Of a DNA stretch of 64,000 nt, positions 11,748 through 63,363 are shown in pieces (the first letter of the stretch is position 1; every line of letters starts with the position of its first letter). The notes under the pieces are model-generated. The model was not told the origin of the DNA, did not search any database, and saw nothing but the letters and a program-made list of their open reading frames with translations. Both the position numbers and the translations under genes were made by a program. The DNA lies in contig CM035357.1 of the NCBI GenBank assembly GCA_020137815.1, forward strand, positions 6,386,001 to 6,450,000. Direction: 5' to 3'. This DNA is from Hormiphora californensis (lineage: Eukaryota > Animalia > Ctenophora).

Positions 11748-23346
<11,599 letters not shown>

Positions 23347-23671: not shown

Positions 23672-24478
23672 GGGGCGCCGTTACGATCTGGGTGGTTGGT
23701 GGCCTGTTAACAGGTGCACGCTGCCAAAAAAGTACGCTGCACTAGTATGGCTCTAACCGCCAAACCACTCAACCGTTTTGGCTAATCCAAAGTTTATCTG
23801 GTAGGAAATATCAAGGCCTAACCCCAACCCAAATCTAACCCCAACCGGCAACCATACTTTAGCCCTAACCCTAAAAAACGAAAAATCGTGAGTGCTGATA
23901 CTCCAACCACCCAGATTTGCACACGCTGGCCGCCCAACAAGGGCACGATTATAATCTGGGTGCCTTGCGGCCTGTTTACAGGTGCGCACTACCAAAAGAG
24001 TACACTTACACCGACTTTTTTCAAACGGCTATAGTCACGCAACCACATGGCCAATTTGAGTAAACTAAACGGTAACTGATAGAGAATCGATAGCCCTAAC
24101 CGATAACCCCAAACCAAACCCTAACCAGACCCTAACGGATAGCCCTAACCCGTCGCGTGCGCTAAAACTACGAATTGTTAGCAATGAAAGGCGGCCAGCG
24201 TTAAAATCTGGGTGTTTTGGGAGTGCTGACAAACGGTTTTTTAGGGTTAGGGCTAAAGTAGGGTTAGGGTTAGGGTTGGGGTTTGGGTTGGAGTTAGGCC
24301 TTGACATTCCCTACCAGATAAACTTTGAATCAGCCAAAACGGTTGAGTGGTTTGGCGGTTAGAGCCATTTTAGTGAATCAACTTTTTTGGCAGCGCGCAC
24401 CTGTAAACAGGCCTCCAAACACCCAGATCGTATAACGGCGCCCATGAAAGGCAGATTTTAACGTTTTCCGCCCAACAA
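23672..24478. mobile_element. Cluster of three MULE-type MITEs: A 23672-23931; B 23941-24469; A' 24193-24443 nested inside B
   Basis: Subterminal ATCTGGGTG...CACCCAGAT inverted motif; 9-bp TSDs GCCCAACAA (23932-23940, 24470-24478) and ATGAAAGGC (24184-24192, 24444-24452); internal (CCCTAA)-like repeats. Relatives at 50440-50495, 50521-51290, 55068-55292, 63290-63525. Confidence 0.8.
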
Positions 24479-24874
24479 GATCTTTGATTTTTTATTTAAT
24501 TTGAAACATCGCGCGCGCTCGATCAATATTTTTCAATTGCGCGCCACTATGTACCACGTATAAAGCAAAATAACCGCCAAGGCTGTTTTGTATTAATATT
24601 TGGACAGCACAAAAGGCAGAATTAAAACTGTACAAATTCTAAATTTACAAACATCAATAAATCAATAAATAAATTGTTTTTTTTCATTATTCAGTCTCTC
24701 CAGTAAGCGAGTAAAGGGCATATTGTGCCTCCAGACACATAGGTCCAGTACCCCTAGCTCTTTCTCTTAGCAGCCTCACTACTCTCCTGTCCCTCATTCG
24801 CAACTCTTTTACAGCCCTCATTACCTGAAAGGAAGGATAGAGTGGTAATACACATTTAGTGATTCTTAATGCAA

Positions 24875-26027
24875 CAACTACTTTAAACACTACTTTAAAC
24901 AAATTAATTTGAGGCTCTAGCCATGCCAGATATGACAAATATGGCTACACCTACTGATGACAAAAGTGATGGCAATGCCCTTGCCGTTGGAAATCTTGTA
25001 AACGCAGCAGATCCCCTTACCAAAAAGATCCTGTCTGCCTACCGCCATGATGTGGATTACACCAAGAATCTAGACATCATCCGCACATTCAACTGTGCTC
25101 ACCTGGAAGCCGCTGCATCGTTTTTCGGTGCATCCCCCGGCTCACATGCAGATAAAACTAAGCGGTACCAGAACCGCACTACACTAGCCGACTACATCAT
25201 CATTCAGCTGGAAAGTCATTTTCCTTGTGACTGTGAGGGCTGTGGCGAAGGGTATGCAGTTAAACCAGGTGAATCTCCTCGTGTCCGCTGTTTTCTTTGC
25301 CAGCAGGGGTCTCATGATTGCGAGGCTATGGATGGCACCCTTGGGTCATTGACGGGGTCGGTCTGGTTGTGTCTGCCGTGCAAGGACAAAAACAACAAAA
25401 TTGAAACCTTCATGTGCAACCGAAGTGCTGAAGATCCAGAATCAGTGTTATCTGATGAGGAATACGAGTTCAAAATCAGTACACCCGTAAGATCGTTGGT
25501 CTCAAGGGGCTGAACTACTGGCAACGTCTTCAAACCCTGGGACTTTTGTCGCTTCAGCGCCGACGAGAGAGGTACACTATGATTCTTGTGTGGAAAGTGT
25601 ACAACAATGAGATACCCAACAGTACTGACATGTGTTTCGTCGACAGTCACCGCTCTGGCCCTAGAGCTGTCGTCCCTCGATACTCGTACGAGGCTCAACG
25701 ATCTATCTTGTCGCTATATGAACAATCATTTGCGGTACTGGGGGCAAGGTTGTGGAACACTTTGCCTCGATCTGTAAAGGAGGCCCCAACTCTTTATCAG
25801 TTCAAATCTCAGCTAGGTAGTTTCCTCTCTACCATTCCGGATACACCCCCCATCAGCGGTTATCCTGCTCAAGCAAACAGCAACTCAATACTAGAGTGGT
25901 GTCCATGATGCGTGTTAGTGTGTTATGTGTCGCTGTGCTGTGAGTGTACTGAGTATTGACTCTTTTTAGGAGGTTTATCTTTTTAAATATCCTGTGTGTT
26001 ACGCAAATTTATGAATTTGAATTTGAA
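24875..26027 (+). mobile_element. Internally deleted CR1/L2-superfamily LINE copy: spliced leader + ORF1 N-terminus (PHD finger) joined to ORF2 C-terminus + 3' UTR with GAATTT tail
   Basis: ORF1 24923-~25478 has C-x2-C...RCFLCQQGSHDC...WLCLPC. From ~25483 the frame reads TRKIVGLKGLNYWQRLQTLGLLSLQRRRERY...SFAVLGARLWNTLP...FKSQLGSFLSTIPDTP...SNSILEW* (25908). Empty site GATGCAAGAGACATG at 29222-29236 in the other copy; AA duplicated at both ends. Confidence 0.8.
24886..24913 (+). other. Ctenophore-type spliced-leader exon sequence captured at the LINE 5' end
   Basis: AACACTACTTTAAACAAATTAATTTGAG matches the 3' part of the Pleurobrachia/Hormiphora SL as I recall it (to be verified). It is followed by GCT, not by a GT donor, and is preceded by a partial repeat CAACTACTTTA. 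Confidence 0.75.
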
Positions 26028-26272
26028 GAGACATGTGCTGTTTCTAGTGGTGTTTCTCAATAAGTTACAAAATCAGGAACAGAAGAATGGATTTTCACTC
26101 CTCCCCTTTTTTGACGATCTGGGCTCACCTGTATTCGTACGAAAATTGAGGAGTCCAATTCGAGGATATCAAGTAACTGATTCAGTAGACTCTTTCCCTT
26201 GATCCCTAGTACAGATATTGACATTACCCCTTGGGCCCTGACATCCTCATTAATATCGTCCAACTTCCTGCA

Positions 26273-27560
26273 GGGTGAGGGGTAAAAGTGAGACGTGTGT
26301 GGGGTAATGAGGTAAGGGGAGTGGGGTGGGGGTAAAGGTGAGGTGTGTGGGGTAATGAGGTATGGGGAGTGGGGTGAGGGGTAATAGTGAGACGTGTGTG
26401 GGGTAATGAGGTAAGGGAGTGGGGTGAGGGGGGGGGGTGTGTGGGGGTAATGAGTATGGGGAGTGGGGTGAGGGGTAATAGTGAGACGTGTGTGGGGTAA
26501 TGAGGTAAGGGAGTGGGGTGAGGGGGGGGGGTGTGTGGGGGTAATGAGTATTGGGAGTGGGGTGAGGGGTAAAGGTGAGGTGTGTGGGGGTAATGAGTAT
26601 GGGGAGTGGGGTGAGGGGTAAAGGTGAGGTGTGTGGGGGTAATGAGGGAGTGGGGTGAGGGGTAAAGGTGAGGTGTGTGGGGGTAATGAGTATGGGGAGT
26701 GGGGTGGGGGGGGGAGTAAAGGTGAGGTGTGTGGGGTAATGAGTATGGGGAGTGGGGTGAGGGGTAAAGGTGAGGTGTGTGGGGCAATGAGTATGGGGAG
26801 TGGGGTGAGGGGTAAAAGTGAGGTGTGTGGGGGTAATGAGTATGGGGAGTGGGGTAAAGGTGAGGTGTGTGGGGGTAATGAGGTAAGGGGAGTGGGGTGG
26901 TGGGGGGTAAAGGTGAGGTGTGTGGGGGTAATGAGTATGGGGAGTGGGGTGAGGGGTAAAGGTGAGGTGTGTGGGGGTAATGAGTATGGGGAGTGGGGTG
27001 AGGGGTAAAGGTGAGGTGTGTGGGGGTAATGAGTATGGGAGTGGGGTGGGGGGTAAAGGTGAGGTGTGTGGGGGTAATGAGTATGGGGAGTGGGGTGAGG
27101 GGTAAAGGTGAGGAGTGTGGGGTAATGAGTATGGGGAGTGGGGTGAGGGGTAAAGGTGAGGTGTGTGGGGGCAATGAGGTATGGGAGTGGGGTGAGGGGT
27201 AAAAGTGAGGCGTGTGGGGCAATGAGTATGGGGAGTGGGGTGGGGGGTAAAGGTGAGGAGTGTGGGGTAATGAGGTATGGGAGTGGGGTGAGGGGTAAAA
27301 GTGAGGCGTGTGGGGTAATGAGTAAGGGGAGTGGGGTGAGGGGACGGTAAAGGTGAGGAGTGTGGGGTAATGAGGTATGGGAGTGGGGTGAGGGGTAAAA
27401 GTGAGGCGTGTGGGGTAATGAGTAAGGGGAGTGGGGTGAGGGGACGGTAAAGGTGAGGAGTGTGGGGTAATGAGGTATGGGAGTGGGGTGAGGGGTAAAA
27501 GTAAGCTGGGGGATGAGTAAGGGGAGTGGGGTGAGGGGGACAAAGTGAGGTGTGGGGTAA
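26273..27560. repeat. ~48-bp G-rich minisatellite (~27 copies) abutting a minus-strand 3' splice site; counterpart 29752-30500 (~16 copies)
   Basis: Unit GGGGTGAGGGGTAAAGGTGAGGTGTGTGGGGTAATGAGTATGGGGAGT. Confidence 0.95.
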
Positions 27561-28617
27561 GAGGTATTTTTGGGGTGGGGTGGCCGTGGGTTAAAAAATG
27601 AGGGGTGCGGGAATAGTGAGGGGACTGGGGTAACAAAACTAAAAGGGAGACGCTATTATAGTTTAAATGAGGTATGCCTACATATGGCACCTTATTAACA
27701 ACAGATACGAGCCGTATAAGAGGTGTGCCATAGGTGCTTATAATTTCCTAACATGATGTCCTTATAGCAACCAGTAGATCTTTGATAATTCCCAATTAAA
27801 TTGCCTTCGATACCGACTCCCTTTCCAAAGGGGAAACCAGATATTAATTTATTTTTTTAAATATTTAATTTTAATGCAGGAACCGACCAAACCAAAAACC
27901 AATCAACTCGTTATTTTGGTCAGTGACTGGTTTATCAGCCAATAAGGGAACACGCTCATATTATCCAGTCTATAATAATGAGGTATGTCCTATATGGCGA
28001 GTACCTTATTACAACAGATAAATGAGCCTATAAATGAGGTGTGTCCTAATATGGTGAGTCCTAAATTGTCCTAATATCATGAATATGGTGTACCTTATAA
28101 CAACAGATAGCATCTTCTGATAGAGTCCACTTTATCACACCGGATCTTCCCTCCCTGGACAGCTACTAAACACATTACTACCTTTGGTACGTATTTGTTC
28201 TGAAAATCGGCATTTTCTCACCACCCACCCTCCCTGCAGGGAGTGGTACTGGTTATGGGAGTGCGAACGAGAGACCCGATATTTGACGAATGAAACACTA
28301 ATCCGTGCCGACGATGCACAGGCGCCCTTAGTAAGGGCCCCTTACTGATACCAAATCAAGCGTTCTGGACTTTTGTATGATCGGGGGCTAATTTATTAAC
28401 AATTTAATTTATTCTTTTTTAGTGTTTTTTATAAGTTGTGTTTTGAAGTTGCTCCGGTTGTTGCGAGCAAAATTGCGTTAAGTTCATATAGACAATGTTA
28501 TCCACTTGAGAAAGTGATACTTTAGAGAGTGCGTTGGCACCATTTTTCTGGGTATATATTCACTATTGAGTGGGATATTAAGTGCATAATTTACATTTAC
28601 ATTTACATTTACATTTA

Positions 28618-28800: not shown

Positions 28801-29040
28801 CCCAGATTTTAACGCTGGCCCACAACAACAAGATCTTTGATTTTTTATTTAATTTGAAACATCGCGCGCGCTCGATCAATATTTTTCAATTGCGCGCCAC
28901 TATGCACCGCGTATAAAGCAAAATACCGCCAAGGCTGTTTTGTATTAATGTTTGGACAGCACAAAAGGCAGTTTTAAAAACTGTACAAATTCTAAATTTA
29001 CAAACATCAATAAATCAATAAATAAATTGTTTTTTTTTCA

Positions 29041-42413
<13,373 letters not shown>

Positions 42414-47376: not shown

Positions 47377-48350
47377 CTATTGCTGCTCCTGCGCAAACGC
47401 TGTCCTGGGTGGCGGGGGTTTAGGAACCAGAGAATCTCTCACCGTAAAGTCTCTCTTGAACAGATTGTCATTGTGTGATGTTGTTGCTCCTGGCATGTTT
47501 ACCTTTTTGAGAGTTCTCTGTCTCCATGACAACTGTGATCTGTGTGCCGTGGTAACGGGCAACTCTGGAAGTTGTTTGTTGGCGGGTCGTGATGGCTGCT
47601 TTAGAGATGATGATGGTGATGATTTCAGCCCGGGTTTATCTGGGAGAGACGCTAACTTTGGAGAACTTGGTTTCTTATCCTTGATGCTAGCAAACACCGG
47701 TTGGGACAAATCCAGGACTTTCTTTTCCAGCTCATTGACAAATACCTGTAACTCCCCAATAGATGGCTCACACACGGGCTGGTCCCTGTCCTCATGCTGT
47801 TGGGATATAGCCTCGTGCAGGAAATCAATATCCTCCCTGAGTAGTTTGTGCTCCTCGGAAAAAGCAGCCCGGATATCCCACACAATTCGGTCGATCTTGA
47901 ATGCCGAGATGTTGTCCCGATAGCTGGTGATGTCAGGAGTGGAGGCTGTGGAGCGGGATGCCGGTCTGGATGGCGTTGAACAGCCACTGCTAGAGTTAGC
48001 CGTGCTGGGTCGGCTAACTGCGTAGTCGTAAACCGTCTTGCGGTCGTTTAGAAATCCTTGAAGCATCCTGTTCTTGGTAGCATCGAAATTATTTACAAAT
48101 TGCTGGATTTGAGCTACAACCTGCTCCCTCAGATATGGATTCTCTGGGAGGGCGTTTTGCCGCTGAGGTGCCGGGGTTGAGTGAGCTTCCAACTCCCAGA
48201 TGCGAGGAGCATTTGTACCTCCGCAAACAACTCGTTACTCTGTTCAACCAGGTCATCTCCAATAATGTACTTGATCTCAGAGAGCTCTACAGTAGGGGCG
48301 TAGAGTTCTATAACTGTCCAAAGGCTTTCTGGGGCGTGTAGGGAGTCCAT
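47377..48350 (-). CDS. CCDC24: Coiled-coil domain-containing protein 24-like, intronless, one frameshift near 48200
   Basis: PESLWTVIELYAPTVELSEIKYIIGDDLVEQSNELFAEVQMLL, then after a 1-nt shift IWELE...LPENPYLREQVVAQIQQFV...ISAFKIDRIVWDIRAAFSEEHKLLREDIDFLHEAI...EPSIGEL; these match the conserved CCDC24 blocks as I recall them. Minus-strand AATAAA at 47175-47180. Confidence 0.75.
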
Positions 48351-48908: not shown

Positions 48909-50084
48909 ATGGCCAGATTGGGCTTTCGGTTGTCCCTCCGCTTGGCACGAGCCCTGTCAGCCGCTCGACCCCAGTTAATAGTTGCTGGGGGAGTAACTGT
49001 AGCTGTAGCCAGTCTTACCACCTACAACACCATGGCCACTGCCCAATGTAAGAAGAAGGTATCGGGAGTGAGCTACAAATCATCCCGACTTCGGGAGAGT
49101 TTCACAGCCCGCGCCTCCATCGAGTACCAGGGGGAGTATTTCATGACAGGAAGGGACTTCCTCGAGGCATGGACTTCTGATGAGTTTTACGAAAAACAAA
49201 AATTAGAGCTCTATGACTTGGAGTACGATACAATGATTGAAACGTCCAACAGAGATAGCGATTTCAATACCTTGTTCACTGCCACCTCCCTCATCTCCTA
49301 TCCAGACTACGTTTTTCTCCGATCAATTCTTCTTCGTCCGGATGACTTGTCAGTGCAAAGTTTCCAAATGATAGATCTAAACCTGGACGGCCAGGTGACT
49401 CTGGAGGAGTTTTATGATATGTATAGGATGTTCACTAAAAATGATGAAACCTCAGATCCCAGTGCTCATCTAAGCACCACCCTCCGGGTCTTGTTGTTTG
49501 GGAAGAACGATGATGGAACAATTGATTTGGAGAAATTTACACGCCTCCTGTCTGACGTACAGACAAACTGTCTTAGAGCGGAATTTAACCGGTTTAGAAG
49601 AAAGGACAGAGAGGATGACTCGATTTCTGTTCAAGGATTTATGAGAGCCGTGCTACGCCGTACAAAGGTGACATCGATCCAACGAGCTCGGTTTATCGAC
49701 AAAACGGAGGCTTACAAGTCCTTGGAGGACGTCTCATTCGAACAGTTTAAATCAATGATCGCACTGTTGAACAACTTCAGTGATTTTGAGGTCGCAGTTC
49801 GGATGTACCAGATAGCAAAGAAACCACTTTCTAAAGTTGTATTTAAAAGGGCAGCCTTCATTTCGTCTGGCGAGGAGATTCACGATGATGTTCTCGACTT
49901 GCTGTTTTATGTGTTCGACGAGGCTGGAGATGGACATTTGTCGCATTCAGAGTTTGTGAATGTCATGAAGACTGGTGTTGAGACGGGGGTTAGTTCCTCT
50001 CAGAAACCGAAGGATGACACTTCAAATTTATCAGTGGGATCGTATTTTAGGAAGTGCATCAGAAGCGAAATGATAAAATCGTAA
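48909..50084 (+). CDS. Mitochondrial calcium uptake protein, MICU2/MICU3-like EF-hand protein, intronless, 391 aa
   Basis: Arg-rich presequence; ASIEYQGEYFMTGRDFL; LISYPDYVFLRSILLRP; EF-hand FQMIDLNLDGQVTLEEF; TTLRVLLFGK; second EF-hand VFDEAGDGHLSHSEF; C-terminal FRKCIRSEM with the Cys typical of MICU dimers. Paralog assignment (MICU2 vs MICU3) not resolved. Confidence 0.92.
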   Translation: MARLGFRLSLRLARALSAARPQLIVAGGVTVAVASLTTYNTMATAQCKKKVSGVSYKSSRLRESFTARASIEYQGEYFMTGRDFLEAWTSDEFYEKQKLELYDLEYDTMIETSNRDSDFNTLFTATSLISYPDYVFLRSILLRPDDLSVQSFQMIDLNLDGQVTLEEFYDMYRMFTKNDETSDPSAHLSTTLRVLLFGKNDDGTIDLEKFTRLLSDVQTNCLRAEFNRFRRKDREDDSISVQGFMRAVLRRTKVTSIQRARFIDKTEAYKSLEDVSFEQFKSMIALLNNFSDFEVAVRMYQIAKKPLSKVVFKRAAFISSGEEIHDDVLDLLFYVFDEAGDGHLSHSEFVNVMKTGVETGVSSSQKPKDDTSNLSVGSYFRKCIRSEMIKS

Positions 50085-50603
50085 CTTTTATTTTGACAGT
50101 GCGAGCAGGAAACAATATACTTTCGTTTTGAGGTTTTCAAGAACATGTAAGCAGAGACATTGTGTAAATATTAATTGAAAGTTTTGTATGGCATTATTTG
50201 CTGACTTATGACTTGTCTGTATCTAGCCACCCTTCAAAACAAAGTTTACGCATCAACATGGATCAAGGATCTTGGTTAGAGTATGGCAATCGAAAAAACA
50301 ATTTTCTTCCTGCGATGGGTCAAGAAAAAAAATCAGGAGACCCAGGAGGGGATTCACTACCTGAGACTGAGCTTCACTGAGGTGATGGTCTATCACTGTT
50401 TCTATCGAGGGATTTGAAGGGCGCAGACCGCAGTAACGATACCTAAAAACCGTGAGTGCTTATACTCAAACCACCCAGATTTTAACGCTGGCCTGCTGAC
50501 TGCACTTCAAGTGTAAAGAACGGACGCCGTTATGATATGGGTGTTTGCTGGCCTGTTTACAGGTGCGACTGCGTGCTGCCAAAAAAGTACCATGCACTAA
50601 AAT

Positions 50604-51129
50604 AATAACAATAACAATAACATTTAACATTTATAAATCGCTTTTGAGCGAAAAGTGTTTATCTCGATCGACTTATACTAAAGCGTCCTTTCGATCAAAA
50701 CTCGCTTTCTAAAGCGCATCTTCGTATCAATGTCCTTCCGAAAGTCCTCGTTGTCATATAATTAAATACATAGTTAATAAGTTAATTAAAAAACAGCATA
50801 AACTGTCACATATAATTAATAAATAGTTAATAAGTTAATCAAAACAGCATAAACTGAACACTGAATATCCACAAGATAGAATCAAACAAAAGTCTAGAAA
50901 AATATAGCGCAACAGAGGCCATAGATCTCAACGTAAAAATTACTACACCAGTCTCAATAAGGAACTTGAAAGGTCAAAGGTGTGCCCGTCATGGAAAAAA
51001 TGAGGTCTTAATCAGGTAATGTTGAGCTTGGTCTTGAAAAATGGTGTACTCGTGTCTTGCAGAGTATGATAGTGAACGATAGGACTTCAAATCCCTTTTG
51101 GCAACATTGTGATGTGATATCCTGTGAAT
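50604..51129 (-). mobile_element. 3' fragment of an L2-type LINE/SINE inserted into a MULE-type MITE (50521-51290)
   Basis: Minus strand ends ...CGCTCAAAAGCGATTTATAAATGTTAAATG(TTATTG)n, with a degenerate FKTKL-like ORF2 end. The MITE sequence CACTAAAAT|GGCTCTA is split around it. Confidence 0.55.
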
Positions 51130-51367
51130 AGGCTCTATCCGCCAAACCACTCAACTGTTTTGGCTAATCCAAAGTTTATCTAATAGAAAACTTCAACCCC
51201 TAATCCAAACCCAAACCTCAGCCCTAACCCTACTTTAGCCCTAGCCCCAAAAACCGTGAGTGCTGACACTCCAAACACCAAGATTTTTAAAGATCAAGAA
51301 ACGACGCGATCCGAAAATAAAGATTGCGCGGCTTTCTGCAGCGTTTTCGGCAAACTTTTTAAAGTCC

Positions 51368-53700: not shown

Positions 53701-53889
53701 TTTAAAATTTTCCCTTGGAATGCGCTGCAGCCCCCTCATGCGCGCACCCCCGCAACGAGGGGACTGGAGGGAATGCCGCGCGCGCGTTTGGCCTGAGCCC
53801 GGCTGGGTCGAAAATAACTTTGCGAGCGAAAAAACGGCGGTGCTTATAACTTTGGCCCCTGAAGTCCGTTTGACTTGATTCTTTCACTA

Positions 53890-54119
53890 TAGTATGATTT
53901 TAAATAACTGTCGTTTTTACCGCACTCGATTTTGCTCTATTATTACAATAACTCCGGTTCCTGATGAGATAAAGACTTGAACTTGGGGGTTGCGAAGAAC
54001 ATGCTAAGTTCTTCCTAACCTCCAAATTTCAAGTCTCTATCTTATCAGGAACTGGAGATATTGTCGTAATAGAGCAAAATCGAGTGCTGTAAAAACGACA
54101 GTTATTTAAAATCAGACTA
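53890..54119. mobile_element. TA-site palindromic MITE inserted in the GC-rich repeat
   Basis: TAGTATGATTTTAAATAACTGTCGTTTTTAC... mirrored at the right end. Flanks rejoin to TAACAGCTAGTGAAAG (minus strand), matching the uninterrupted copy at 28619. Confidence 0.8.
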
Positions 54120-55067
54120 TAGCTGTTAGATCTGACAATTATCTACCTTGCTGTTTTTGAGAGGAGTTAATTGGACTTCAGGAGGCTGAGTTGGGCACGT
54201 CGCGCCCTCTTTTTTCGCGCGCGATTTTTCGCGAACCCCTCACACAGAGGGCACAGTCACGACTAGAGCACTCGGAAAGTCCTTAGCTTTGCTAAACGGC
54301 GCTAGTTAGCGCTTTAATTTTTGGTTTTTCTGATCGGCACTATCTCAAACTGGTGCAACGTATTTGTCTCGATCTATAACTCTCAAAAACAGTGGCGTAA
54401 TCGCCGATTTCTGTATACAGTTTTTTGGCGATTACGAGAGATTGAGGGATCTGACAAACACAAAATTCTGGATTTATAAACTTCAGACAATTTGCCACCT
54501 TCCTACCAAAGGATTTTGTCTGGGGACTTCTGGCCTTTGATTGACAGCCAATTAAAAATAGTTGTCCTGAATTTAGTGGGGCTTAGTGTGGCTAAACCAT
54601 GGCCATAGCATAACCATCTTTTTTTTGCAGGTAGAGGTACTGAACGTGGCAACGTGTAGGTGGCCAGGTCTGAAACGATTTCTAGGCTGATGAAAGACTC
54701 TTTAACTTTTGAGTTGAAAAACAGGTTTTGGGACAAAATGGACACTTTTCCTTGTCCAATTGGAGAACTCTTGACATTTTCTGACTTATTTGTACGTTTT
54801 AATGAAATATTGTGTCTAAATAGCCTCTAATCACTTAATTAAGTGTGTTGCACGCGCAAATATAAAGCCGCGCCTATTTTTTGAAAACATTGCGCGCGTT
54901 TTGAAATTAAAAAAATCTTTGCTGAGCTCAGCAAAGATTTTTTTTAATTTCGAAAGCAAACTCTCAAACAAACTTTCCACTTTCCACTTTGAAAAGCGCT
55001 GCCATATCCCGGGCCAGCAACGTTTGCCAACTTTCCACTCAAACCACAGAAAGATGAGGTAAATAAA

Positions 55068-55292
55068 GGCGGGATTATAATCTGGGTGCCTTGCAACTGT
55101 TTACAGGTGCACGCTACCAAAATATAGTACACTTGGATCGACTTTTTCAAAGTTCAAACACGCAACCACATGGCCGATTTGAGTAAACTAAACGGCATCT
55201 GATAGAGATTCGATAGAGCTAACCTACCCTAACTGGCGCGCCCGAACGACGAATCGTTGGTAATGGAAGGCACCCAGATTTTAACGCCGGCT
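55068..55292. mobile_element. MULE-type MITE (family B)
   Basis: Homologous to 23941-24469 minus the nested copy; 9-bp TSD GTAAATAAA / GTAAAGAAA. Confidence 0.75.
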
Positions 55293-62010: not shown

Positions 62011-63363
62011 TCCTGGTATATCGGGGTGGAATGTGATGAAGTAGTATCTCCACAAAACCTCCCATTCATATTTGTCCTTAACCGTTTTATTTTCATCCAG
62101 ACGTTTCTACGAGATCATTTGGATCGGCCTTCCAGTCTCTTCGATAATATGTCTCCTTCCGTGAGATTGAAAATACAAGGTATAAAATGCTTTATATGGC
62201 AGTAGGAATTAATTAAAAAATAAATACATGCATATTAAGAACAAATTATCTCAGTTTAGTTCATTGTCACAGTTAGTTACTCATACTTTAGTGATAGTTC
62301 ATTCTTAAAATGTCCATAACTTATATATATTACCACCCTTTCTATTTAGGTACTGGAGTTATCCTTGTATGGGTCACTTTCTTGAGCCTCTACAGTGTAG
62401 AGTCTACACCTCCCCCTCCCCCATCCCTTCCCACTCTGTTCATGTTCACAGTCCGAGATATGAGGCTCCACCCTCGGGATAGCCGTCAGTCCGCCAGGTA
62501 TTTTCTACCCACTCTCTTTAGTATTATACTTCAATTTCCGTGACGAGGCTTTTACAGTATTTTACTAGCCTTCTATCAGGTTTTCAGGGCCCCTTAGCTG
62601 CAGCAGACGCGGTGTGGGGTCCCTAGTGTGTACGGATTTTATGTGTGTATTGAATTCCTTACCTTTGTATGTACATTGTATGTACATTGTACACCTAAAA
62701 TAGTTCTTCCCAGTAAATTCTGCCGCCAAAATCAGGAGCGGGGTGCGCGGGGCGCGCGCAATCTATAGTAAGTAGATACTCAAACTGTCAGCATTTGGTC
62801 TCGCGCATACCACGCTATGCATTTTTCTTATCATGACTACAGCCCCTCCTGCGGAGGGGCTGCTTCGCAGCCAAGAGGCTGAGCAATAACCGTTCAAAGA
62901 TTGGTTGTTTTCAAAAAGTGACGTCACAGGTCCATGCAGGGACACTTTGTTTCAAATTTGAATTAAATCTCGAATTTTTTTATTTTACCGCACTCGATTT
63001 TGCGGAGTTTGGTTCATATCTTTCTGTTCTGATAAGATAGAGACCTGCAACCGGTTGCATTTGAAAGCTGTATCTTTCTCTTTCCAACGCTACCAAAACG
63101 ATTTCTGTACCTTATCTGGAACCGGAGATATGATTGATTATGTATTCCCCCCTAGCGCGGTATTCCCTCCAGGCCCCTTATATTATATTATAAGGGGCCT
63201 GCAACGTATGCCAAATAAAAATTTTCCCGAAAAAATCCGCACCGCGCCGGCCGCCGACGCCGACGCGGCCGCTCAGTGATGTGTTCGTCAGGCCAGCGTT
63301 AAAATCTGGGTGTTTCGTGAGTGCTGACAAACGGTTTTTCAGGGTTAGTGCTAAAGTAGGGTA

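Follow-up and report, generated by a model that had tools for sequence, protein, structure and literature searches.

Host spliced leader sequence at the 5′ end of a LINE insertion in Hormiphora californensis and at the head of further ctenophore LINE loci

How can a LINE carry, in genomic DNA, the leader that its host splices onto messenger RNAs? A LINE must rebuild its 5′ end and its promoter in each round, and trans-splicing strips everything upstream of the acceptor, so that the two should be in conflict. The question is raised by a stretch of 64,000 nt from the ctenophore Hormiphora californensis (assembly GCA_020137815.1, contig CM035357.1, positions 6,386,001 to 6,450,000 of the forward strand; hereafter the window), in which a first-pass annotation had pointed out a LINE insertion that begins with what appeared to be the host spliced leader (SL). 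The LINE RNA was proposed to have been trans-spliced and then reverse-transcribed through into the leader, and the captured leader was moreover proposed to act as an acceptor in an SL-dependent, self-renewing life cycle.

The insertion, its empty site and its leader

The insertion spans 1153 bp (24875..26027), and a duplicated copy of the same host segment without the insert lies within the 64-kb window. The features of both sites are as follows (window coordinates, strand, description, with the evidence in brackets).

24692..24824 (duplicate 29046–29178), minus strand: host exon downstream of the LINE-holding intron, open up to a stop (open frame, with AG/GT at the ends)
24873..24874, no strand: AA common to both insert ends, left side, a 2-bp duplication or microhomology (sequence, and a DNA-run joint with two letters fitting either side)
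24875..24885, plus strand: 11 extra nt that repeat, imperfectly, the initial 12 nt of the truncated leader (12-mer seeds found again 12 nt upstream)
24886..24913, plus strand: 3′-terminal 28 nt of the ctenophore SL, which ends in GAG at the splice-donor position (sequence match)
24914..24922, plus strand: LINE 5′ UTR of 9 nt, with a TAG two bases before the ATG (sequence)
24923..25480, plus strand: N-terminal 186 codons of ORF1, Cys-rich, the fused frame stopping at 25513 (88% to the 469-aa protein P0001)
25479..25481, plus strand: internal deletion junction with 1–2 nt of microhomology (loose ends on both sides in DNA runs)
25480..25908, plus strand: ORF2, its C-terminal 142 codons (100% identity with the RT-bearing P0176 and 78% with the 942-aa APE- and RT-bearing protein P0177)
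25909..26011, plus strand: 3′ UTR (sequence)
26012..26027, plus strand: 3′ tail made up of 2.7 TGAATT units, the final AA being the base pair common with the target (sequence)
26129..26267 (duplicate 29561–29699), minus strand: host exon upstream of the LINE-holding intron (AG/GT ends and open frame)
29220..29236, no strand: empty site in the duplicated host segment, with AA at 29227–29228 and no leader (sequence; empty form also in DNA runs X4 and X5)

The duplicated host segment covers 24452–24874 versus 28803–29228 (95%) to the left of the insert, and runs from 26066 onward versus 29498 onward to its right. With one AA common to the filled and the empty site, the insert comes to 1151 nt when counted between two AA, or to 1153 nt if a 2-nt ambiguity is allowed for. 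The empty form was also recovered from two of three DNA runs (X4 and X5) as a joint that skips 1153 nt and has two letters fitting either side, X5 being the independent run as X4 may be the window's own source; the third DNA run held only a wider joint (24827–26042). The LINE sits 50 nt from the acceptor of the host exon at 24692..24824 and, since the flanking exons are on the minus strand, it is antisense to them, so that sense LINE RNA is not expected from host transcription.

The tandem duplication as a whole (24452–28129 / 28803–30979) has an offset of 4354 nt to the left of the LINE site and of 3432 nt to its right. Its unit comprises two minus-strand coding exons, the second ending in a stop, with the same translation in both exon copies, and a G-rich 48–49-nt minisatellite is present in each copy of the duplication. 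A MITE-like, hairpin-type insertion (29279–29494; related sequence at 53887–54122) occurs only in the intron of the "empty" copy. Elsewhere in the window are a 1.3-kb foldback element (21645–22967) with arms that are 95–98% complementary, an inverted-repeat element with TTAGGG-like runs (23673–24446; relatives at 50522–51287, 55062–55224 and 63291–63362), an uninterrupted 391-aa EF-hand ORF (48909–50084, plus strand) and a CCDC24-family ORF (47377–48066, minus strand).

The order of parts described in the first-pass annotation (i.e., stutter, SL 28-mer, 9 nt and ORF1 ATG, with a leader-free empty copy of the intron) agrees with the sequence, and its assignment of the 28-mer to the host leader was borne out. 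Specifically, positions 24886–24913 are identical to the 3′-terminal 28 nt of the 44-nt leader published for Hormiphora (compared by eye; PMC8527503), and exactly match the last 28 of 43 exon nt at the SL-gene locus L088 (see below). The 28-mer occurs once in the window, with a chance expectation of 9e-12 for the window and of at most 4e-7 in 110 Mb. The leader stops 15 nt short of the full SL, and the 11 extra nt preceding it (24875–24885) are, by their sequence, likely the product of a reverse-transcriptase jump at the 5′ junction. The possibility that these 11 nt represent an SL variant was rejected, as they were found in none of 20 loci with at least 8 nt upstream of the search motif.

That the insert is neither an SL RNA gene nor an insertion into one had also been claimed, and both points hold. 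The terminal AG of the leader is followed by GC and not by GT, whereas the true SL gene at L088 has GTAAG and a donor hairpin; the match to the start of the SL-gene intron past the window leader amounts to 1 nt, and the SL intron is absent elsewhere in the window. The empty site, moreover, is intron sequence with neither SL nor SL intron. No independent contig bridging the SL–LINE junction of the window was present among the best 32 of 1145 pieces. With an SL exon at its 5′ junction that is cut at the donor, and a pre-insertion site free of SL, the insert is well supported, on these sequence grounds, as an SL-tagged LINE retrocopy.

The ORF1 piece of the window copy aligns with the first 186 residues of a 469–475-aa protein (88% to P0001) and belongs to a family of 2178 representatives (E ≤ 0.001; 50% identity), in which a Cys-rich N-terminal domain is combined with CCCH-like fingers. 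The domain of the window ORF1, for which Pfam gave no match above threshold, is presumably PHD-like. An internal deletion of about 3.3 kb has fused 186 of the approximately 475 ORF1 residues to the last 142 of 942 ORF2 residues, with the order of ORF1 upstream of ORF2 being kept. Since both intact continuations appear as loose ends at approximately 25480 in DNA runs, full-length copies exist. Splicing as the cause of the deletion was rejected because no AG precedes the ORF2 side. P0177 carries the domains PF00078, PF14529 and PF03372, and the APE and RT domains themselves are deleted in the window copy, which, being internally deleted and antisense to host exons, is dead.

APE-type LINEs (CR1/L2 group) have a 3′ tail of short tandem repeats and a short target duplication or none. 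The window copy fits this type with its 2.7 TGAATT units, the 2-bp AA common to both ends and its relatives with APE and RT, and we take it to belong to the CR1 group.

The leader motif and further leader-headed LINE loci

An exact 22-mer of the SL was used to scan metagenome contigs, yielding at least 121 loci in the 56 of 64 parts scanned (approximately 140 estimated in all); the DNA or RNA nature of each assembly was inferred from its contents, as it is not recorded. In 108 of the 121 listed loci the contig start falls inside the leader, after which come 107 different sequences with the first ATG at a median of 12 nt. Leaving out 41 short loci, and six LINE-type loci among the 80 with long flanks, 74 SL-headed ORFs could be compared with Pfam, and 65 of these matched cellular families while none matched an RT or transposon family. 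Because of this predominance of contig ends within the leader and of SL-headed ORFs matching cellular Pfam families, the motif is, as far as sequence can tell, a working leader. It had no matches in viral contigs or in genome contigs.

Two of the loci, L088 and L089, are SL genes located 778 nt apart on one contig, with GTAAG following the exon. Both (280–420 in each locus) have the appearance of ctenophore-type SL RNA genes, with a 43-nt exon, the GTAAG donor in a predicted hairpin and an Sm-like T-run at a distance of approximately 97 nt from the start; the SL gene has no match in Rfam. AG occurs in the SL exon only at positions 1–2 and 42–43, positions 3 to 41 being free of it. In the DNA runs for the window itself, many different sequences adjoin the SL on both sides (5–12 contigs per end and run, agreement 0.44–0.58), as expected for dispersed copies. 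Leader copies number 718 in Hormiphora and 491 in Mnemiopsis according to the Hormiphora genome paper, the available part of which makes no link to LINEs (PMC8527503).

Sequence beyond the 5′ end of the SL was present in 13 of the 121 listed loci, consisting of six LINE heads, the two SL genes, three host mRNAs with few extra 5′ bases (L017, L060 and L090), L067 and L086. Of these, L067 was discarded as a hairpin artefact of assembly. L086 (150–486) has a genomic-type SL copy, exact over 35 of 43 nt, with a short 5′ stutter like that of the window and T-rich sequence thereafter. Among the matches listed, none of the 13 flanked loci was a host-gene retrocopy with a real flank. It should be noted that the SL itself served as the query for these loci, so that families or copies without SL could not appear in the sample, and that L039, L043, L065, L082 and L086 are known here without their contig 3′ ends and RT cores.

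The six LINE heads (L028, L039, L043, L065, L082 and L072) match the SL exactly over 40–43 of its 43 nt, although the search demanded only 22. L028, L039, L043 and L065 encode a 413–431-aa ORF1 with Cys/His knuckles, overlapping an APE-type ORF2 that passes the Pfam cut-off in three of the four (L028 itself being cut short). L082 has an ORF1 akin to the window family (hhalign 94.5%), and L072 is a relative of L015, a further LINE-type locus with the SL at the contig start in an mRNA-like assembly (for which a DNA origin or a genomic SL is possible); no ORF2 was seen for either. The ORF of L015 obtained no identity from a PDB sequence search or from Atlas and was identified by folding: human L1 ORF1p accounts for the first 11 Foldseek matches of its model (pLDDT 68) and also for the best VIA match (Z 10.0, rmsd 2.7, 86 aligned). 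Pfam named none of the ORF1 proteins of the SL-headed LINEs, and ORF1-based locus scans retrieved no relative from metagenome, viral or genome contigs. The SL head is carried by three ORF1 types, with the L015/L072 type being assigned from its predicted fold. The expectation in the first-pass annotation of multiple independent SL-headed copies was thereby borne out by six LINE heads and L015 among the 121 listed loci. A 13-residue tandem repeat in ORF2 before the RT domain of L043 (2700–3048) is an insertion or an assembly artefact.

The ORF1s of the SL-headed LINEs are 43–59% alike, and the ORF2s of the window type and the L028 type approximately 22%. UTRs next to the SL are 48–61% alike versus 46–52% for shuffles, the pair L028/L043 reaching 80%. 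In all eight LINE-type cases only the exon part of the SL gene is present (0–2 nt of its intron following the leader), set before an intact ORF1 start, and within each clade the SL–LINE junction is in register. The flanks of the LINE loci match neither one another nor the region upstream of the SL genes, with at least 20 nt to compare in six of the nine LINE-type or unassigned heads, and the same SL-headed design recurs in three separate assemblies. The SL-to-ATG spacing is only 9–12 nt in the window family, and the UTRs of the L028 group measure 145–188 nt.

Acceptor-like sites were also observed around these heads. Right before the ORF1 ATG, 145–188 nt past the SL, the L028 group has a strong and conserved acceptor-like site (TTTTAG in L028, L039 and L043; TTACAG in L065), and TTTYAG directly follows the SL at L072 (96–101) and L082 (296–301, minus strand), i.e., in two of eight LINE heads versus 0 of 110 host-type loci. 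YAG is located at most 12 nt before the ORF1 ATG in seven of eight LINE heads versus 35 of 109 host-type loci (p = 0.003, in a post hoc comparison with three independent clades). YAG just after the SL was rejected as a LINE-specific trait, as it is found in the first 7 nt past the SL in four of eight LINE heads and in 35 of 110 host-type loci (p = 0.44). With regard to the opposite end, L043 and L065 are contigs of approximately 5 kb that start 5–6 nt before the SL, and L082 is an SL-headed copy with at least 279 nt of upstream flank in an assembly in which 62 of 63 SL loci are at contig starts, and may be read-through RNA.

Origin of the leader heads

Since the SL stops at the splice donor while the adjacent UTRs have diverged, trans-spliced LINE RNA is the likely template of these copies. 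In agreement with the first-pass annotation, and given the exact SL up to the donor and the SL-free target, we consider it very probable that an SL-trans-spliced LINE RNA was reverse-transcribed at least once per lineage. Fresh addition of the leader each time is the simplest account, because the leader is perfect beside diverged UTRs.

For the window copy, a parent would have been transcribed together with upstream sequence and an AG acceptor located 9 nt before the ORF1 ATG, and the spliceosome would have added the SL as it does on host mRNAs, as suggested by a junction that lies exactly at the donor. ORF2 protein would then have primed at the target on the TGAATT tail, as expected from LINE biology, and have copied the RNA into the leader; the tail, the common AA and the empty site can be seen directly in the window. 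Reverse transcription would have halted 15 nt short of the leader start, with a small jump, and approximately 3.3 kb would have been lost during or after insertion. The same route was likely taken in several ctenophore LINE lineages, with a fresh leader each time. The resulting SL-headed daughters would do without whatever lay upstream of the acceptor and would probably be mostly dead ends, with the lineage being carried on by copies made from unspliced RNA that retain the acceptor.

That SL-headed daughters are thus a frequent and mostly dead by-product of parents that keep their own acceptor is, on balance, the version that we consider probable. One contig of run X10 (a relative's DNA) begins precisely at the AG (24912), a hint of two upstream forms, i.e., the leader and a native acceptor, although a variant at 24942 would explain this contig start as well. 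It is the only trace of a native acceptor with its upstream sequence, which was read in no copy. In C. elegans, the genomic RNA of Cer1 escapes SL1 splicing and a shorter RNA receives SL1 (PMC3315495), and by analogy this split between spliced and unspliced RNA may hint in the same direction. The only RNA run, X16, covered the SL and the 3′ part of the element with no contig bridging SL and ORF1, and thus says nothing on the 5′ end. Should L043 and L065 be collapsed multi-copy assemblies, SL heads would be the norm in those families, which would speak against a by-product.

The self-renewing cycle of the first-pass annotation would make every active copy SL-headed: RNA initiated upstream or read through from the flank would be trans-spliced at the terminal AG of the captured leader, rebuilding the same 5′ end each round with no promoter of the element's own. 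A perfect SL next to a diverged UTR, the mere 9–12 nt from SL to ATG in the window family, the long upstream flank of the possible read-through contig L082 and the starts of L043 and L065 just before the SL all fit such a cycle. It also keeps some probability at the level of the families, as AG is absent from positions 3 to 41 of the SL exon and occurs only at 1–2 and 42–43. However, the leader would have to work with GAG, the least preferred acceptor (CAG > TAG > AAG > GAG, in human data; PMC2699507), and the YAG at most 7 nt downstream in four of eight LINE heads should compete with it and erode the head. Moreover, the window copy is internally deleted and antisense to host exons, and the X10 contig starts at the AG itself. 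The cycle is therefore not supported so far, and we regard it as rather unlikely. In its widest form it would mean that ctenophore LINEs of at least three ORF1 types gave the making of their 5′ end over to host SL trans-splicing, with every full-length copy being SL-headed, the captured leader serving as outron and acceptor on read-through RNA in place of an own promoter, and most of the 718 and 491 leader copies in Hormiphora and Mnemiopsis being LINE heads and not SL genes; this we hold to be similarly doubtful. If the captured leader were indeed reused as an acceptor, LINEs would have a further route to define their 5′ end, besides internal promoters and ribozymes.

Alternatively, the SL could have been captured once per lineage and now be inherited as the element's first bases, kept by selection along with an internal promoter, with the YAG near the ORF1 ATG being the trans-splice site of the translated RNA. 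The enrichment of YAG within 12 nt of that ATG (post hoc and in three clades) and the TTTYAG directly after the SL in two heads would agree with this, as would the UTRs of the L028 group, which offer room for a promoter, and the promoter role proposed for dinoflagellate SL relicts (PMC5585692). Such inheritance nevertheless demands selection on all 40–43 nt of the head while the UTRs are otherwise near random similarity, and host mRNAs, too, often have a YAG in the first 7 nt past the SL; we regard it as improbable that the head is inherited.

A chimera, in which reverse transcriptase jumped from LINE RNA to SL RNA or to an SL-capped mRNA, or in which RNAs were ligated, would resemble the U6/L1-type fusions that are common in mammals (PMC13174262), and the 11-nt stutter at the window 5′ end does suggest a jump. 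Yet the foreign sequence breaks off at the SL donor, followed by 0–2 nt of SL intron, in eight of eight LINE-type cases, the ORF1 5′ end is complete and the junction is in register within clades, leaving this origin very improbable. Finally, an assembly chimera or an insertion beside or into pre-existing SL sequence (NeSL/SLACS-like) is the least probable of all, despite the unbridged window junction and the chimeric assembly that the Schistosoma authors raise for their own cases (PMC5832876), given an empty site free of SL in the window and two DNA runs, the absence of SL-intron sequence from the window, LINE-locus flanks unlike each other and unlike the SL-gene upstream region, the same design in three separate assemblies, and relatives that encode APE and not a restriction-like endonuclease.

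SL-headed LINEs could account for some of the hundreds of leader copies that are scattered through the Hormiphora genome and left unassigned in the available part of the genome paper (PMC8527503), and copies of this kind can confound SL-gene annotation and Iso-Seq mapping. As several lineages of ctenophore LINEs carry a leader that is fresh and nearly whole, the conflict between LINE propagation and trans-splicing becomes testable in existing long-read genomes.

Comparison with known systems

NeSL, like SLACS and CRE, is an RLE element that inserts into SL genes. In common with the ctenophore element, these three are non-LTR elements beside SL exon sequence (PMC4640811); in contrast to such RLE elements, which target SL genes, the ctenophore element is of the APE type, entered a target free of SL and contains the SL within its own insert. 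Chimeras of LINEs with U6 or other small RNAs (e.g., U6/L1) also attach a short host RNA, in sense orientation, to the 5′ end of a LINE within a single insertion (PMC13174262), but consist of a whole small RNA and a variably 5′-truncated LINE, whereas in ctenophores only the exon is present, cut at the donor, and the ORF1 5′ end is intact.

Host trans-splicing is likewise used by Hydra TEs, of which approximately 30% of the Iso-Seq reads carry an SL (PMC12220107), and by C. elegans Cer1 (PMC3315495), in both cases at the RNA level only. The full-length template of Cer1 is not SL1-spliced, whereas for the ctenophore LINE an SL-spliced RNA evidently served as template. Dinoflagellate retrogenes with DinoSL relicts have a leader that was likewise written into DNA via reverse-transcribed trans-spliced RNA (Song 2017, PMC5585692), and both promoter and acceptor roles have been proposed for these relicts in the same work. 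Such relicts tag host genes by the thousand and occur in tandem stacks, whereas host-gene retrocopies are absent from the 13 flanked ctenophore loci and full leaders in tandem were not observed.

In the open-access literature, we found no report of SL-headed LINEs in ctenophores, and the available parts of PMC2861651 (Hebe), PMC12460157, PMC7986045 and PMC7653826 do not mention SL-headed elements. The closest parallels come from flatworms. Six cases in Schistosoma of an SL exon merged with retrotransposons were read as integrated trans-spliced RNA (Boroni 2018, PMC5832876), and the same reading is given for 597 loci with partial leaders in parasitic flatworms (Calvelo 2025, PMC12582326). Like the ctenophore loci, they have a genomic SL exon joined to LTR or LINE elements with no other SL-RNA features; in the available text, however, they form a side remark with no analysis by family or junction, whereas the ctenophore leader is nearly complete in six loci, ends at the donor and stands in register before ORF1. 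SL-tagged retrotransposons were thus already suggested for flatworms, and the loci described above are evidence that leader heads recur across ctenophore LINE lineages.
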